DNA of 49,739 nucleotides, from NCBI GenBank assembly GCA_046074325.1, contig JBJTNX010000070.1, forward strand, positions 1 to 49,739, given 5' to 3'. The position numbers and the translations under genes are program-made. Origin of the DNA: Sphingomonadales bacterium (GTDB taxonomy: Bacteria > Bacteroidota > Bacteroidia > Flavobacteriales_D > Crocinitomicaceae). The notes below the pieces were generated by a model. It saw nothing but the letters and a program-made list of their open reading frames with translations, was not told the DNA's origin and made no database searches. Shown here one piece after another: positions 31,017-36,797 of this stretch. Position 1 is the stretch's first letter; each line of letters starts with the position of its first letter.

Positions 31017-31664
31017 TCAACAAAGCTCTTTTAGGGCTTTTGGCGTGCCTATTGTTCTGGTAATCAGGTCTTTTTCGAATTTTGGCGAACGCGCTGGTGA
31101 ATATTCTCGCCCATAGAAAATAATCTGTAAATGCAATTTGTTCCAGGTGTGCTCTGGAAATAATTTCTTGGCATCGCGCTCTGTTTGAACCACGTTTTTC
31201 CCGCTGGTTAATCCCCAGCGTGTGAGGAGTCTGTGAATATGCGTATCGACCGGAAATGCCGCAAAACCAAAACCCTGCGACATGACAACCGAAGCGGTTT
31301 TGTGCCCAACCCCTGGCAAGCGCTCGAGGTCTTCGTAGGTTTGCGGTACAATCCCGTTGTAATCTTGGACCAGTATCTGTGAGAGTTCGCTTATGGCCGC
31401 CGCCTTTTTTGGTGACAATCCGCAGGGCCGAATGATTTGTTGTATTTGCGCGGTTGGCACCTTGGCCATATCGAACGGGTTATCGGCCAAAGCAAAAAGA
31501 GCAGGCGTTACGGTATTGACGCGCGCGTCGGTGCATTGTGCCGAAAGCAAAACCGCAATTAACAGCGTGTAGGGGTCTTTATGATCGAGTGGAATAGGTG
31601 TACTCGGATACAATTGCTCCAAGATTTCAATGACATAAGCCGCTTTTTCTTTTTTTGTTTTCAT
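31017..31664 (-). CDS. nth: Endonuclease III family DNA glycosylase/lyase lacking the C-terminal 4Fe-4S Cys cluster
   Basis: Start at ATG 31664, an ATGA overlap with the upstream gene. LLIAVLLSAQCTD, HhH-GPD LERLPGVGHKTASVV (catalytic Lys) and VDTHIHRL (Asp) are present. The C-X6-C-X2-C-X5-C motif is absent in all three frames. Confidence 0.85.
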   Translation of the reverse strand: MKTKKEKAAYVIEILEQLYPSTPIPLDHKDPYTLLIAVLLSAQCTDARVNTVTPALFALADNPFDMAKVPTAQIQQIIRPCGLSPKKAAAISELSQILVQDYNGIVPQTYEDLERLPGVGHKTASVVMSQGFGFAAFPVDTHIHRLLTRWGLTSGKNVVQTERDAKKLFPEHTWNKLHLQIIFYGREYSPARSPKFEKDLITRTIGTPKALKELC

Positions 31665-32524
31665 ATATAACCGAGTGTAAATAGGTGAAGGAAGCGGTTT
31701 TCGGTACTTAAAAATAAAATGATAAGTCCAAGAATAAGGTAGCGAGAAACCACAGAACCCGCTACAAAAATAATATCCGCACTTGCCCAGCGCCAACAAA
31801 TAAACGGTAGCAAGAATAACAAACTCAGCCAGATCTGAGCCCAGTAAAAACTAAAATGAATAGGGACTGTTTTGTAATAGAGACCATCTTGAAACCCGAG
31901 CGCTTTGGCTTGGTGAAGCCAAGGTGTATCGATACTAGCCAACGCTTTGACCTTCGTTAATTGCTGAGTATAATAATCGGCAGTCCAAAAATAGCGTCCG
32001 TCGGTACTTTCGAAAAGTTGAACGCTGTGTCCGTCAACACTGCCATAGGTATGTATTCCATATGCTTTTACCAGAATGGGGTTTTGCTTGGCTGGCAAAA
32101 AATAATCGATCCATAGGACGAAAGTTAGAATGATTCCTGCATAGGCTACAAAACGGTGCCAAAGGCCATTTTTTCCGGATTTGAGTTTATTTAAATAGGC
32201 TATTCTGTAGGCTTCTTCTTTTTGTTGTTTTTGTCTTAATTTTTCTCTTGTGGCTTCTCTTCTGATGCGATAGGCCTCTAAATCTTCCGCGTAGGTCGCC
32301 TGGGTTTTTTGCTGTTGTTGGGTAACTGTTGCTGGGTTAATGACCTGGCCAGTACTGATTTGTTCGTAAGCTTCTTGTATGGCCAAGAAGTGTGCGGCCG
32401 CATCTTCGCTCTTATTTTTATCGGGGTGGTATTTTTTTACCAACGCACGGTAGGCTTTCCGGATTTCAGCAGCCGATGCATTCGGTTGAATGCCCAATAT
32501 CTTAAAGGGATCTCCAATCGTCAT
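31661..32524 (-). CDS. J-domain (DnaJ-like) membrane protein
   Basis: 287 aa. N-terminal J domain with an HPD motif (DPFKILGI...YRALVKKYHPDKN), a charged linker, then several TM segments. Confidence 0.75.
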   Translation of the reverse strand: MTIGDPFKILGIQPNASAAEIRKAYRALVKKYHPDKNKSEDAAAHFLAIQEAYEQISTGQVINPATVTQQQQKTQATYAEDLEAYRIRREATREKLRQKQQKEEAYRIAYLNKLKSGKNGLWHRFVAYAGIILTFVLWIDYFLPAKQNPILVKAYGIHTYGSVDGHSVQLFESTDGRYFWTADYYTQQLTKVKALASIDTPWLHQAKALGFQDGLYYKTVPIHFSFYWAQIWLSLLFLLPFICWRWASADIIFVAGSVVSRYLILGLIILFLSTENRFLHLFTLGYI

Positions 32525-33515
32525 GGTTCAGCTTTTGAAGAATAGCATTGCGCCGGATTTTTTGAGTATCCGTACGCTCAAAGTGTGGGATGCACGCATA
32601 CTGTCTTGGTTTTTCTGCAGCGGTGAGTTGCAGGGTATCTAAAGCAGAAACGTCGGGTTTGGAGGTGGTTTCAAACACAATGACAACGCGTTCACCCCAT
32701 TTGGGATCAGCGAGGCCGGTAATAAAGAAAGGAATAGAAAAATACGGCGCCAATTTGGCTTCAAGGAATTCTGGGATTATTTTAAAACCACCAGAATTGA
32801 TGGCGTGGTCTGCGCGCCCCAACCAAGTGAATTGGGTCGAGTTATGGAGTTGTACCAAATCTTTGGTGCGCAATCCGTTTGGGTATAAGTGCGGATAGTG
32901 TATGCAAAGACAGTCATTTTCTTGCGAAAAAGTAATGCCAGGTAATGCTTCAAAATAGGGAGTTTCTGTAGGGCTAACTTTGCGCAAGGCAACATGTGAA
33001 AGCGTTTCGGTCATGCCATAGCTTTGCCAAACTTCGAGTTGGGCTTCTTGACAAGCCAAGACTTGTTCAGCGCTTAGCGCACCACCACCTACAAGAATTT
33101 TGGAGATTTTTTTTAATTGTTGTAAATCATGGGTTAAACTTTGTTGGAGCTGGGTCGGAACCATTGCTATGAAATCGATTGAAACGCTGAGGTCCTTCAA
33201 CGGACGCGAAGTTGGCGTGGTTAAAAACAAGTCGAAATCAGCCACCAAGGACCTCGCCATTAACATGAGCCCACCGACGCTGGTCAGGGGTAAACACAGA
33301 AGCGCACGGGTTTGGTACTTGAGGTCGAGAGCGGTAATACTTGCTTGTGCGGATTGAATTAATTGGTCTTTTTCAAAAGTATGTAATTGAGGATCGCCGG
33401 TTGTTCCGGAACTATGAATGGAAAAATTAAGGTTATTTTCCCAGCGTTGCAGAAATTGTAGGGCCGTATCTCTGAGGCTCGGGTCTGAACTTAAAAAATG
33501 CCATTTGGGCTGCAT
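32502..33515 (-). CDS. Compact adenylate-forming (AMP-binding) enzyme, MenE/O-succinylbenzoate-CoA ligase-like
   Basis: 337 aa. Core motifs SSGTTGDPQ, YGMTET, GRADHAINSGGFKI and a C-terminal K. The start shares one base with the dnaX stop (TGATG). Confidence 0.7.
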   Translation of the reverse strand: MQPKWHFLSSDPSLRDTALQFLQRWENNLNFSIHSSGTTGDPQLHTFEKDQLIQSAQASITALDLKYQTRALLCLPLTSVGGLMLMARSLVADFDLFLTTPTSRPLKDLSVSIDFIAMVPTQLQQSLTHDLQQLKKISKILVGGGALSAEQVLACQEAQLEVWQSYGMTETLSHVALRKVSPTETPYFEALPGITFSQENDCLCIHYPHLYPNGLRTKDLVQLHNSTQFTWLGRADHAINSGGFKIIPEFLEAKLAPYFSIPFFITGLADPKWGERVVIVFETTSKPDVSALDTLQLTAAEKPRQYACIPHFERTDTQKIRRNAILQKLNHDDWRSL

Positions 33516-34123
33516 CAGTAATCGATATCGAGGTTGAAACGGTTTTTAAGTGTGTGCAAGTTTGGATTCTTGCGGGCAAGTGCCGCAAATTTATCTTTAC
33601 CCGTCAAGAATTTCACTTCGTCTTCATCGGGAGCTGCTTGTGTCAGGACAATATCTAGGTAGTAGTTATTGAGTTGCTTGCGCATGAATTCTTTGAAAGC
33701 AAGTAAATGTGTTTGAATGTAGTTGTATTGTACAAGATTATCGACAATCAATTCAAGTATTTCGTCGGATTTGAGAATGGGATCTCGTTTAATCAAGGCA
33801 TTGTAAAAGGTTTCCATGCCGTCCACCTTGAGCTGAAAAGCGTATTGTTTCCAGTACATCTTGACATGATCGAGGTGAAAGCCTTCTCTGGGCAGGTCTT
33901 CTTGACGAACCTGTTGCTGACCTGCTTTGTCTTTTTCTAGGGTTTCTTTAATTGAAATAATGTGCGCTTTGGTGGCTATTTGAGGCGCAGTTGTTTGTTC
34001 TGGAACCGGTATACTTGGTTTTTGATCAGCGATTTGTGGGGTGCTCGATTTGTTGGATTTACGCAGAGACTGCTTGGGAAAGGGCAGGATATCGATGCGG
34101 TCAGTTAGGCCTTTTTTTTTTCT
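33515..34123 (-). CDS. dnaX: dnaX -1-frame extension (tau-specific C-terminal region), open from the A10 run to the stop at 33515
   Basis: Hand translation of the -1 frame from 34123: RKKKGLTDRIDILPFPKQSLRKSNKSSTPQIADQKPSIPVPEQTTAPQIATKAHIISIKETLEKDKAGQQQVRQEDLPREGFHLDHVKMYWKQY..., with no stop. The tracked 33515-33859 ORF is only its Met-initiated tail. Confidence 0.7.
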   Translation of the reverse strand, partial: RKKKGLTDRIDILPFPKQSLRKSNKSSTPQIADQKPSIPVPEQTTAPQIATKAHIISIKETLEKDKAGQQQVRQEDLPREGFHLDHVKMYWKQYAFQLKVDGMETFYNALIKRDPILKSDEILELIVDNLVQYNYIQTHLLAFKEFMRKQLNNYYLDIVLTQAAPDEDEVKFLTGKDKFAALARKNPNLHTLKNRFNLDIDY

Positions 34124-35220
34124 TGCTCTTGCTTGAGTGAGCAGAGCTGCATGAGCGCAACCTCAATGAGGAGTCTTTGGTTTTTAGATGCTTTGTAGTC
34201 GACGTCGGTTTTTGACAAGACCTGTAGGCCTCTTAGCAGGCGTGTTGCCTCGATATCAGCAGCTTGCTGCATAAAGCGTTGTCTGATGGAGTCAGGTGCT
34301 TCGAGTAAATTGGCTGTTTGTGGATCTTTACAAACTAAGATATTGCGAAGGTGTTCGGCAAGGCCAACAACAAAATGGTGTCCGTCAAAGCCTTTTTCGT
34401 AGATGTCGTTGAGTATCAAGAGGGCCGCCGGAATATCTTCTTTTTCAGCTGCATCGACCACCTTGAAGTAATATTCGTAGTCGAGGATATGTAGGTTTTC
34501 GAGGACGTCTTTGTAAGTAAGTGTGTTGCCTGCAAAAGTAACGAGCTGATCAAAAATAGATAATGCATCGCGGAGGGCGCCATCGGCTTTCATCGCAATT
34601 TGATGCAGCGCTTCTGGGTCTGCAGATACGCCTTCTTTGGTGGCAATAGTACCGAGATGATCGGCGATATCTTTAACACGAATGCGCTGAAAATCAAAAA
34701 TTTGGCACCTCGATAAGATGGTTGGGATAATTTTATGCTTTTCTGTTGTAGCTAAAATAAAAATGGCGTGTTTTGGTGGCTCCTCCAATGTTTTCAGAAA
34801 AGCATTGAACGCAGAGGTCGAAAGCATATGGACCTCATCGATGATGTAAACCTTATGGCTTCCGAGTTGCGGCGCGATGCGCACTTGATCGATGAGGTTT
34901 CGGATATCGTCAACGGAATTATTCGATGCAGCATCTAGCTCATAGATGTTCAGTGAATTTCCTGTATGAAAAGACAAACAGGAGTCGCATTGGTCACAGG
35001 CTTCAATGGCTGAGGTAGGATTGAAGCAGTTGATGGTCTTGGCTAAAATGCGGGCGGTTGTGGTTTTTCCTACACCGCGAGAACCACAAAACAAAAATGC
35101 TTGAGCGAGGTGCTCATTTTTAATGGCGTTTTTGAGTGTATTGGTAATAGATTGTTGTCCAACGACGGTGTCGAAGGTTTGCGGACGGTATTTTCTTGCC
35201 GATACAACAAATTCACTCAT
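34105..35220 (-). CDS. dnaX: DNA polymerase III gamma/tau subunit, zero-frame product (371 aa, gamma-like)
   Basis: AAA+ clamp-loader core: YRPQTFDTVVGQ, Walker A GSRGVGKTTTARI, zinc module C..C..C, Walker B YIIDEVHMLS, SRC motif ILSRCQ. Ends ...QEQEKKKA-TAA immediately after the A10 run. Confidence 0.9.
   Translation of the reverse strand: MSEFVVSARKYRPQTFDTVVGQQSITNTLKNAIKNEHLAQAFLFCGSRGVGKTTTARILAKTINCFNPTSAIEACDQCDSCLSFHTGNSLNIYELDAASNNSVDDIRNLIDQVRIAPQLGSHKVYIIDEVHMLSTSAFNAFLKTLEEPPKHAIFILATTEKHKIIPTILSRCQIFDFQRIRVKDIADHLGTIATKEGVSADPEALHQIAMKADGALRDALSIFDQLVTFAGNTLTYKDVLENLHILDYEYYFKVVDAAEKEDIPAALLILNDIYEKGFDGHHFVVGLAEHLRNILVCKDPQTANLLEAPDSIRQRFMQQAADIEATRLLRGLQVLSKTDVDYKASKNQRLLIEVALMQLCSLKQEQEKKKA
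34111..34122 (-). other. dnaX: Slippery site: G AAA AAA AAA G (A10) containing A_AAA_AAG in the zero-frame phase
   Basis: Plus strand c-t10-c at 34111-34122. Zero frame reads GAA AAA AAA AAG GCC TAA. The -1 frame reads AGA AAA AAA AAA GGC CTA ACT... and stays open. Confidence 0.8.
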
Positions 35221-35224
35221 GTTT

Positions 35225-35232
35225 CAAAGATA
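35225..35232 (-). promoter_or_regulatory. -7 box TATCTTTG (minus strand), 4 nt upstream of the dnaX ATG (leaderless geometry)
   Basis: Minus strand reads TATCTTTG-AAAC-ATG. Confidence 0.4.
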
Positions 35233-35276
35233 CCGCATTTTTTGAAAAAGCACTGCTGAAGATATCAACACTTATT

Positions 35277-36797
35277 TCAATTTTTAAGCAATTGAAATTG
35301 ACTTTCGGCAACATTTAACAAATATACGCCGCACGGGAATGAACTCAAGTCTAGTTTTTCAGAAAGAGCACCATTTAAAAGGAGCTTTCCTCTGGCATCC
35401 AATAATTCAAAATTCTGTTGGGTTAAATGAGGCGGAATCTCAAAGAGACCACTGCTCGGATTAGGAAATATCTTGGGAAGGGTCGGGATTTCACTAACTG
35501 TATTTGTGCTGTCGTTTTGGTCGTAACGGTTTATATAAATTTTTAGCGAACCGCTACGAACATCGCCCCATATGGTGTAGAGCAGGTTGTTTTCAAATTG
35601 CACGCTTAAAAAATCGTTGCCGTTCTCAAGAAGAATGGAATCATCGGTCACCAAAGGACTTACAATAAATTCATTTTGCCATGATCCATTGGTCTGAATT
35701 CGGCAATAAATCTGACTAGGGCTCTGATATGTAGCTGGATTGCCATTGCGTCGATCTCGCCAGCAAACACCGAGGTCGCCATCGGTGTCGTAGTCGGCCC
35801 AAACCAGGTCTTGTATGGCACCGTTGCCTTGAACATCATTATTGACTCTGGCGGGCGCACCCCAGGTGCTGCCATTTTTTTCGATAAACGCGATATCAGG
35901 GTCGCCAAAAACTTCTGTTGTGAAGAAATAGGCAGCCTTATTTGAATTGGTTGAATGAAGCGCTAGATGAGGGCCGCTTTTGAGTGTATCATTTGACGTT
36001 CCGAACCCTAAACCTTGGAACGCCGTTTGATAACTGTAAAAGGAGGCAGGAGCCGTTTTACGGACCTCTATGATTCTTGGTAATATGCTTTGACTTGGTT
36101 CGTAACTTGGATACAAAGCCATAAAAGTGCCATCAGCTGCGAAGGCCGGCGATGGCATGGGTTGTTGAATGGCGCTTCCCGCCAAAAACGGAGCCGCATC
36201 CAAAATTTGCGTTTGAAAAGTATTGCCACCATCGCTTGACAGCGTAAGATACGGATGGTATGGCGCCAGCACCATTCCGGGTTGTTCAGCATTCATACTG
36301 GTAATGGCAACTGTACCTGTAAGTGGATCTACTGCAATCCATGGCCGATCTATACACAACTGGTTTGGGCAAGATGTAATTGACAACGCAACTACTGCTG
36401 CTCCCCATGAGAGACCGCCATTTGAGGATTTGCGGCAAATAATGGCGCCATTTGTAAAGTTGATGTTGTCGTAATCGATGTATGCCATATACAAGTTCCC
36501 ACTCGCGTCAAAACCGAGCGAGACATCGGCGCTGCTGTTAGAGGCCTGTTGGTGCGCTAACCAAATTGGTGTAGACCAAGTACTGCCGCCATCGGTTGAG
36601 ACAGCACTTTTAATAACGATTTTTTGGTTTGGTTGAAAGCCCATCCACGCAGCCACGAGGTGTTGGCTATTTTGAGGATGCACCGCCAAGTAAGGCTCAC
36701 CTTCAAAGAATGCGCCGCTTGACACTAAAGTATTTTGCGCAATTCCAATCATACAATTAAACAAAAATAGGTAGGTGAGTAAGGCCTTTGTTTTCAT
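35277..36797 (-). CDS. Secreted BNR/Asp-box (sialidase-fold beta-propeller) protein with T9SS CTD
   Basis: 506 aa with a signal peptide. Asp-box repeats STDGGSTW, SSNGGLSW, SSDGGNTF. C-terminal IFPNPSSGLFEI...GVYLLNV sorting domain. Confidence 0.75.
   Translation of the reverse strand: MKTKALLTYLFLFNCMIGIAQNTLVSSGAFFEGEPYLAVHPQNSQHLVAAWMGFQPNQKIVIKSAVSTDGGSTWSTPIWLAHQQASNSSADVSLGFDASGNLYMAYIDYDNINFTNGAIICRKSSNGGLSWGAAVVALSITSCPNQLCIDRPWIAVDPLTGTVAITSMNAEQPGMVLAPYHPYLTLSSDGGNTFQTQILDAAPFLAGSAIQQPMPSPAFAADGTFMALYPSYEPSQSILPRIIEVRKTAPASFYSYQTAFQGLGFGTSNDTLKSGPHLALHSTNSNKAAYFFTTEVFGDPDIAFIEKNGSTWGAPARVNNDVQGNGAIQDLVWADYDTDGDLGVCWRDRRNGNPATYQSPSQIYCRIQTNGSWQNEFIVSPLVTDDSILLENGNDFLSVQFENNLLYTIWGDVRSGSLKIYINRYDQNDSTNTVSEIPTLPKIFPNPSSGLFEIPPHLTQQNFELLDARGKLLLNGALSEKLDLSSFPCGVYLLNVAESQFQLLKN

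Follow-up and report, generated by a model that had tools for sequence, protein, structure and literature searches.

How is the long tau product of a dnaX gene made when the zero reading frame of that gene closes before the tau-specific part is reached? This question is raised by the dnaX gene on the minus strand of a 49,739-nucleotide stretch of DNA from a Sphingomonadales bacterium (GTDB lineage Bacteroidota, Flavobacteriales_D, Crocinitomicaceae; assembly GCA_046074325.1, contig JBJTNX010000070.1, positions 1 to 49,739), referred to here as the window. The zero frame (open reading frame 1, ORF1) encodes a gamma-like product of 371 amino acids (aa) with the C-terminal residues ...KQEQEKKKA* (codons CAA GAG CAA GAA AAA AAA AAG GCC TAA), and its stop lies two codons downstream of a run of ten A's (A10), the longest homopolymer in the window. 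From G34111 on, directly after this run, the -1 frame (ORF2) is open for 198 codons, beginning with GLTDRIDILPFPKQSLRK... and ending with ...NLDIDY; the probability of such an open alternative frame is ~1e-5. Fusion of ORF1 and ORF2 gives a product of 568 aa with the junction ...EKKK-GLTDR.... Here, we consider it almost certain that tau can be obtained from this gene only by nonstandard decoding and that this decoding is under selection, and quite probable that it occurs mainly by transcriptional slippage of the type known from Thermus, with tau moved to the -1 frame.

These features had been noticed in an original prediction that was made from the letters alone, and all numbers given there for the run, the two frames and the fusion product hold. 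The same is true for the end of the -1 frame one nucleotide into the next gene (its TGA shares one nucleotide with the ATG of the gene at 32502..33515), and for the presence of an A_AAA_AAG heptamer phased as in Escherichia coli dnaX (codons GAA AAA AAA AAG). A further feature, absent from that prediction, is that the +1 frame also closes, reading PN* and ending two codons past the run. The coordinates of all features are listed in Table 1.

Table 1. Features of the dnaX locus in the window (positions as in the contig, plus-strand numbering)
Feature	Position	Strand	Remarks
dnaX ORF1	34105..35220	minus	zero frame, 371-aa gamma-like product; TAA at 34105-34107
A10 run (T10 on plus strand)	34112-34121	minus	at the end of domain III; candidate slippage site
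dnaX ORF2	33515..34111	minus	-1 frame, 198 codons and TGA (33515-33517); tau-specific part
Leu-Thr-Asp codons CTA ACT GAC of the tau frame	34100..34108	minus	hide the zero-frame TAA (34105-34107) and the +1-frame TGA (34101-34103)
Linker, ORF2 residues 1-79	33875..34111	minus	rich in P, Q, S, T and K; predicted disordered
C-terminal folded domain, ORF2 residues ~80-191	33539..33874	minus	Pfam PF28557 (DUF8439), precomputed hit
Possible nascent-RNA hairpin	34125..34147	minus	8 bp with one bulge, GCUCUGCU...AGC-AGAGC; ends 3 nt 5' of the A-run

ORF1 has Pfam matches to DNA_pol3_delta2 (residues 22-180), DNAX_ATPase_lid (185-231) and DNA_pol3_gamma3 (239-370), and its residues 6-360 match TIGR02397 (dnaX_nterm) with 437 bits against a cut-off of 250. 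By these matches it is the N-terminal part of dnaX, comprising the AAA+ module, the lid and domain III. When the fused protein was compared with NCBIfam NF011531, a Bacteroidota-type DnaX model of 614 positions, it scored 730 bits (cut-off 685), and ORF2 alone matched the last 172 positions of this model (443-614). In tblastn searches, residues 1-568 of the fused protein were collinear with the one-ORF DnaX of loci L003 and L005 and of many other Bacteroidota. What is decisive for the reality of the arrangement is that the -1 product is a homologue of the last third of full-length DnaX.

The original prediction had described ORF2 as a tau-like linker rich in P, Q, S and T followed by a C-terminal domain, and both the match to the end of NF011531 and the confidence profile (pLDDT) of an AlphaFold model of ORF2 bear this out: pLDDT is 40-57 over residues 1-80, which include the linker peptides IDILPFPK and SSTPQIADQKPSIPVPEQTTAPQIATK, and 76-90 in the C-terminal domain, which is modelled with an alpha/beta fold. 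The best Foldseek matches of this domain were weak and included DnaA domain I (4TPS, E=0.05), DciA (7YKM) and the DnaA N-terminal domain (2E0G). DnaA domain I, DciA and DnaX domain V (2AYA) have a common type II KH fold (Marsin et al., 2021; PMC8216460). The modelled C-terminal domain probably corresponds to domain V of tau, although this assignment is tentative because of the weakness of the fold matches. A search of the ORF2 sequence against PDB gave no match at E-values up to 10, and the fused protein has no match to the Pfam models of tau domains IV and V. In gene calls, the C-terminal domain of tau appears as a separate orphan ORF of 100-114 aa (33515-33859 on the minus strand in the window, and L081-L090), which is DUF8439 in precomputed Pfam hits, while the local Pfam copy gave no report of DUF8439 for the fused protein. 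DUF8439 appears to represent the C-terminal domain of DnaX in Bacteroidota.

The null explanation of the original prediction was a homopolymer undercall, that is, an assembly or sequencing artefact hiding a true A11 genome with a continuous 568-aa ORF, and A10 versus A11 is indeed a classic homopolymer ambiguity. This explanation could not be sustained. The identical 371-aa product was found on contigs in 61 blocks of an assembly collection (NCBI, JGI, ENA and Logan), and A10 was present in all 10 strain-level loci fetched, which come from different assemblers and projects and show 3-60 substitutions in the gene relative to the window. A comparison of run length and frame structure in related dnaX genes, as the prediction had proposed, revealed that the four nearest species (L001, L002, L004 and L006) keep A10, a zero-frame stop two codons on and an open -1 frame. 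The two-ORF form with A10 also occurs in the cultured Flavobacterium psychrotolerans, sequenced at 309x coverage, and in F. quisquiliarum; the nearest named protein match is from Crocinitomicaceae, with 60% identity. Besides, in a survey of 81 Bacteroidota dnaX genes (that of the window and those of 80 species representatives), 43 other genes have A10 in frame, and a systematic undercall would break those instead. Two near relatives are recorded as continuous, with runs of A8 (L091) and A11 (L092), the nearest in-frame lengths. However, they are the only near-relative full-length clusters among the best 120 protein clusters and both are singletons, whereas ~100 of these clusters represent truncated forms of 371-383 aa with 78-96% identity. 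We therefore regard an artefact as extremely improbable.

The two continuous ORFs (L091:2600 and L092:2025) are on singleton contigs of the same clade and may be real variants, errors or RNA assemblies. On the other hand, L093 and L094:2600, which also have A11 and come from two samples, look like a genuine one-ORF A11 species, which implies that a change of one nucleotide in the run flips the architecture.

Long homopolymers are mutable and rare A8 and A11 contigs exist, which might also point to phase variation at the DNA level, in which replication slippage would give A10 and A11 subpopulations and tau would be made only in A11 cells. However, A10 is the consensus in each of the ten assemblies of this species examined, so the majority genotype must be viable and must make tau. 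In addition, an exact A10 is held across the phylum, which is the opposite of a freely varying tract. Phase variation is thus hardly credible as the source of tau.

Another possibility is a decaying or split gene that makes only a gamma-like DnaX, with the C-terminal domain either made as a protein of its own, starting at the ATG at 33859 (114 aa), or left as a dead remnant. The separate ORF of 100-114 aa emitted by gene callers and the listing of DUF8439 in Pfam would agree with it, but the pattern of variation does not. Third codon positions account for 39 of the 48 sites that vary among the strain loci in the -1 frame region (p=1e-11). ORF2 has no ATG, GTG or TTG until codon 85 (the ATG at 33859), yet this initial stretch of 84 codons is open in every two-ORF locus and is itself third-position-biased (12 of 16 variable sites, p=8e-4). 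Directly 3' of the run, the tau frame also has a conserved motif, x-L-T-D/E-x-x-x-I-L/I-P-F, which is found in L001, L002, L004, L006 and L091-L093 at any run length. Identity to the window in the four nearest species is 74-77% in ORF1 and only 36-47% in ORF2, and the C-terminal parts have diverged to this extent without gaining stops. Moreover, tau binds polymerase and is essential. Taken together, these observations make a split or decaying gene very unlikely. Independent initiation of ORF2 at the ATG was rejected on the same ground, a start-free linker that is nevertheless under selection; an argument from non-conservation of this ATG (114-aa versus 100-aa calls) was dropped, as the ATG is present in all strains.

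In terms of sequence comparison, then, the A10 run is shown to be genuine, the selection on the -1 frame indicates that this frame is translated, and the run and its three-frame layout are conserved across the phylum. The reversed polarity that had been predicted, with an unshifted gamma-like product and a shifted tau, is upheld by the rejection of an artefact and by the selection on the -1 frame.

The survey allowed us to ask what is conserved at this position. A run of A9-A13 was found at the domain III boundary in 67 of the 81 genes, and it was exactly A10 in 58. Its first A is found at each of the three codon positions, and the next base is G, T or C. The tau frame, which extends for ~200 codons to the tau C-terminus, is the zero frame in 50 of the run-bearing genes, the -1 frame in 14 and the +1 frame in three, and the two non-tau frames stop within 1-15 codons. 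In the window, both of these stops are hidden by the Leu-Thr-Asp codons of the tau frame, and thus every non-tau frame or transcript ends two to three codons past the run. In a neighbor-joining tree calculated from the N-terminal part, two-ORF genes were present in at least eight separate clades; the clade of the window (five species) was monophyletic with a stable architecture and was sister to one-ORF genes. The three genes of the +1 type, at L037, L065 (also fetched as L154) and L079, have A10 and need one A lost or two gained.

At first, we expected an A10 run to be improbable by chance, but this argument was dropped after dinucleotide shuffles, which contain on average 2.9 matches per window and indicate that such a run is not improbable from composition. 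Homopolymer runs of at least nine are depleted in the window, where the dnaX A10 is the sole one. Because A10 is not rare in shuffles, its significance rests on position and conservation. Across the surveyed loci, the conserved feature is run length together with stops in two frames, and not heptamer phase, flanking bases or stimulators.

We propose the following mechanism. Faithful transcription of A10 followed by standard translation would give the 371-aa gamma-like subunit, which ends two codons past the run. On the T10 template, RNA polymerase would realign the nascent A-tract and produce transcripts with mixed run lengths. Those with A11 (also A8 or A14) would bring the 198 codons into frame and yield the 568-aa tau with its disordered linker and KH-like C-terminal domain, whereas those with A9 or A12 would read RPN-stop and give further gamma-like protein. 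In this way, a single dnaX gene would supply both gamma and tau, as it does in Thermus thermophilus, but the long essential product would come only from slipped transcripts. That the shift takes place in transcription instead of translation is inferred, as are the proportions of the two products.

The original prediction had left two routes to tau, -1 ribosomal frameshifting or RNA polymerase slippage. The need for nonstandard decoding stands, but the two routes are no longer even, as the comparative data favour polymerase slippage over a heptamer shift. An E. coli-like -1 ribosomal frameshift on A_AAA_AAG with reversed polarity, in which the shifted product would be tau and the unshifted product gamma, could in principle replace slippage or add to it. 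The heptamer is correctly phased in the window, an in-phase A_AAA_AAN heptamer lies inside the run at every locus of the -1 type, and reversed-polarity shifting has been considered for some dnaX genes, e.g. the A7 of Chlorobium phaeobacteroides (Atkins et al., 2016; PMC5009743). However, the last codon of the run, the A-site codon of such a shift, is AAT and not AAG in two of the four nearest species (L004 and L006). The conserved run is exactly ten, three A's beyond the need of the heptamer, and the three A10 loci that need a +1 shift are beyond the reach of a -1 shift.

Searches for ribosomal stimulators point in the same direction. As the original prediction had noted, there is no convincing hairpin downstream: the 46 nucleotides after the run in the window fold with only -4.0 kcal/mol (z=+0.59) into no stable hairpin, no conserved pairs were found 3' of the run, and an Rfam search of the run region at E-values up to 10 gave no dnaX frameshift element and three sub-threshold chance hits. 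Downstream folding was not enriched across the 67 run-bearing loci either (median rank 0.53). Upstream of the run, inspection by eye showed a weak GAG in CAAGAGCAAG as the only possible Shine-Dalgarno-like sequence. Bacteroidota are generally known to use Shine-Dalgarno pairing little, which would speak against a 5' stimulator of this kind. The window contains no tRNA genes and hence gives no view of the tRNA-Lys repertoire. With no ribosomal stimulator found 3' of the run and run length conserved, RNA polymerase slippage is favoured over an E. coli-like heptamer shift. The finding that the same A10 serves genes of both the -1 and the +1 type also fits transcriptional realignment, according to the criterion of Antonov et al. 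(2013). Overall, we consider a ribosomal shift an unlikely main source of tau.

A different kind of signal was observed on the 5' side. The possible nascent-RNA hairpin in the window ranks at 0.02 among control positions of dnaX. Among the 67 loci, a hairpin ending 0-3 nt 5' of the run has a rank of at most 0.1 in 39% (binomial p=4e-10, with phylogeny ignored). This geometry is as reported for stem-loop-stimulated slippage of RNA polymerase (Penno et al., 2015, as cited in PMC5009743). The 5' hairpin may thus be a terminator-like stimulator of slippage; this is suggestive only and is best treated as a lead.

Several points weigh against transcriptional slippage as the main source of tau. The assignment to transcription follows from comparative logic, and we found neither RNA nor protein data for any two-ORF dnaX, including that of the window organism, in the literature searched. 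A heptamer in phase, either A_AAA_AAA or A_AAA_AAG, is part of any A10, which makes a -1 shift of the ribosome possible in every gene of the -1 type. If tau came solely from transcripts with one additional A, a high insertion rate on A10 by the RNA polymerase of Bacteroidota would be required. The 5' hairpin of the window, with -10 to -11.5 kcal/mol and z=-1.5 against shuffles, is not significant alone, and many of the 67 loci have no abutting 5' hairpin. The protein junction itself is not informative in this respect: an A11 transcript and a -1 ribosomal shift give the identical EKKKGLTDR junction and the same 568-aa protein, so that slippage and ribosomal frameshifting cannot be told apart by it.

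A more far-reaching interpretation, which we regard as possible but doubtful, is that Bacteroidota dnaX carries a phylum-wide terminator-like module consisting of an abutting nascent-RNA hairpin, exactly ten A's and stop-hiding Leu-Thr-Asp codons. Such a module would keep the output of the two products balanced, the tau frame would have moved repeatedly among the three registers, and an in-frame UAG would have replaced the run in one rumen Bacteroidales clade. If this were true, the organism would depend wholly on 'erroneous' transcripts for a subunit essential to replication, with a product ratio tuned by the 5' hairpin. Neither the 5' hairpin nor the UAG variant was found in the literature searched.

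The reversed architecture as such is not new. Previously, 17 two-ORF dnaX genes from 12 genera were reported (Antonov et al., 2013, NAR 41:6514; PMC3711429), nine of which have A10, namely those of Flavobacterium johnsoniae, F. psychrophilum, Cytophaga hutchinsonii, Capnocytophaga (ochracea), four Chlorobi and Coraliomargarita (PMC3711429; GeneTack dnaX cluster). These A10 genes were assigned to programmed transcriptional realignment by alignment with the Thermus site, and the arrangement was later reviewed (Atkins et al., 2016; PMC5009743). In these genes, as in the window, ORF1 ends just past the poly-A run and tau needs a -1 frame change at the DNA level. All sequence features of this class are present in the window: an ORF1 encoding the dnaX N-terminal part, A10 at the end of ORF1, a -1 tau ORF2, and a conserved position and direction. 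There is no difference in kind, only another lineage, that of uncultured freshwater-type Flavobacteriales. Thus, the gene in the window adds a lineage to an architecture already published in 2013, for which no experimental test was found in the literature searched. On the other hand, that literature was not found to mention the presence of A10 in most one-ORF Bacteroidota genes, the +1 variants, the stops hidden by Leu-Thr-Asp codons or the enrichment of 5' hairpins.

Among the experimentally studied systems, Thermus thermophilus dnaX slips on A9 (Larsen et al., 2000, PNAS, as described in PMC1088944 and PMC5009743). Both genes have an A-run at the gamma/tau boundary, heterogeneous transcripts would be expected from both, and near stops in both non-tau frames lead to gamma. 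In the window the run also has at least nine A's and the near stops are two codons (zero frame) and two to three codons (+1 frame) away. The difference is that in Thermus tau is templated in the zero frame of an A9 gene and slippage leads to the short product, whereas in the window tau is in the -1 frame of an A10 gene and slippage would lead to the long one. E. coli dnaX shares the gene, the boundary, the A_AAA_AAG phase and two products with a common N-terminus; however, it has A6, a 5' Shine-Dalgarno-like stimulator and a 3' stem-loop, and its shifted product is gamma, in contrast to A10, no 3' stem-loop found and tau as the shifted product in the window. Dependence of a longer product on slippage has a parallel in Shigella flexneri mxiE (PMC1088944), where two overlapping ORFs are likewise fused by one non-templated nucleotide in a homopolymer and the long functional protein depends on this event. 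Nevertheless, mxiE has a run of T's, and the transcription activator that it encodes is unrelated to DnaX and serves in regulation, not in an essential step of replication.

Although the principle has been public since 2013 and this instance adds breadth and no new concept, it brings evidence at the level of populations and of the phylum that a protein essential for replication can hinge entirely on nonstandard decoding of a homopolymer. It also has a practical side, as annotation pipelines split such genes into a short dnaX and an orphan ORF (DUF8439), which should be annotated as one recoded dnaX. Genes of the one-ORF, -1 and +1 types, which share one A10 site, form a natural series for studying the efficiency and tunability of RNA polymerase slippage. 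Genetically tractable Flavobacterium species are among the carriers, and the series bears on the question of why bacteria keep the gamma/tau pair.

Several Bacteroidales dnaX genes without an A-run were also observed. In three uncultured rumen or gut species (L038:2788-2802, L067:4102-4116 and L097, the dnaX of which starts at 1801 and stops at codon 367), the domain III boundary is instead occupied by an in-frame TAG with the conserved surroundings TAG ATT GC(A/T) AGG, and past this codon the same frame stays open up to the tau C-terminus, over ~190-254 codons. In L067, neighbouring genes are also terminated by TAG, which is therefore a normal stop there. From its sequence, this type of dnaX looks like a candidate for a third gamma/tau route, by termination versus UAG readthrough; no report of a UAG-type dnaX was found in a literature search. 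In two further loci, L078 (also fetched as L098) and L167, ORF1 stops at 383 or 424 aa and is followed by an ORF of 230-266 codons in the +1 frame, for which an assembly error is possible.

With regard to the genomic neighbourhood, the region 31661-36797 on the minus strand encodes an M16 peptidase, a protein with a type IX secretion system (Por_Secre_tail) sorting domain, dnaX, an AMP-binding enzyme, a DnaJ-domain membrane protein and an HhH-GPD glycosylase, and this order is kept in all strain loci. The two genes that follow dnaX ORF2 overlap by 23 nt.

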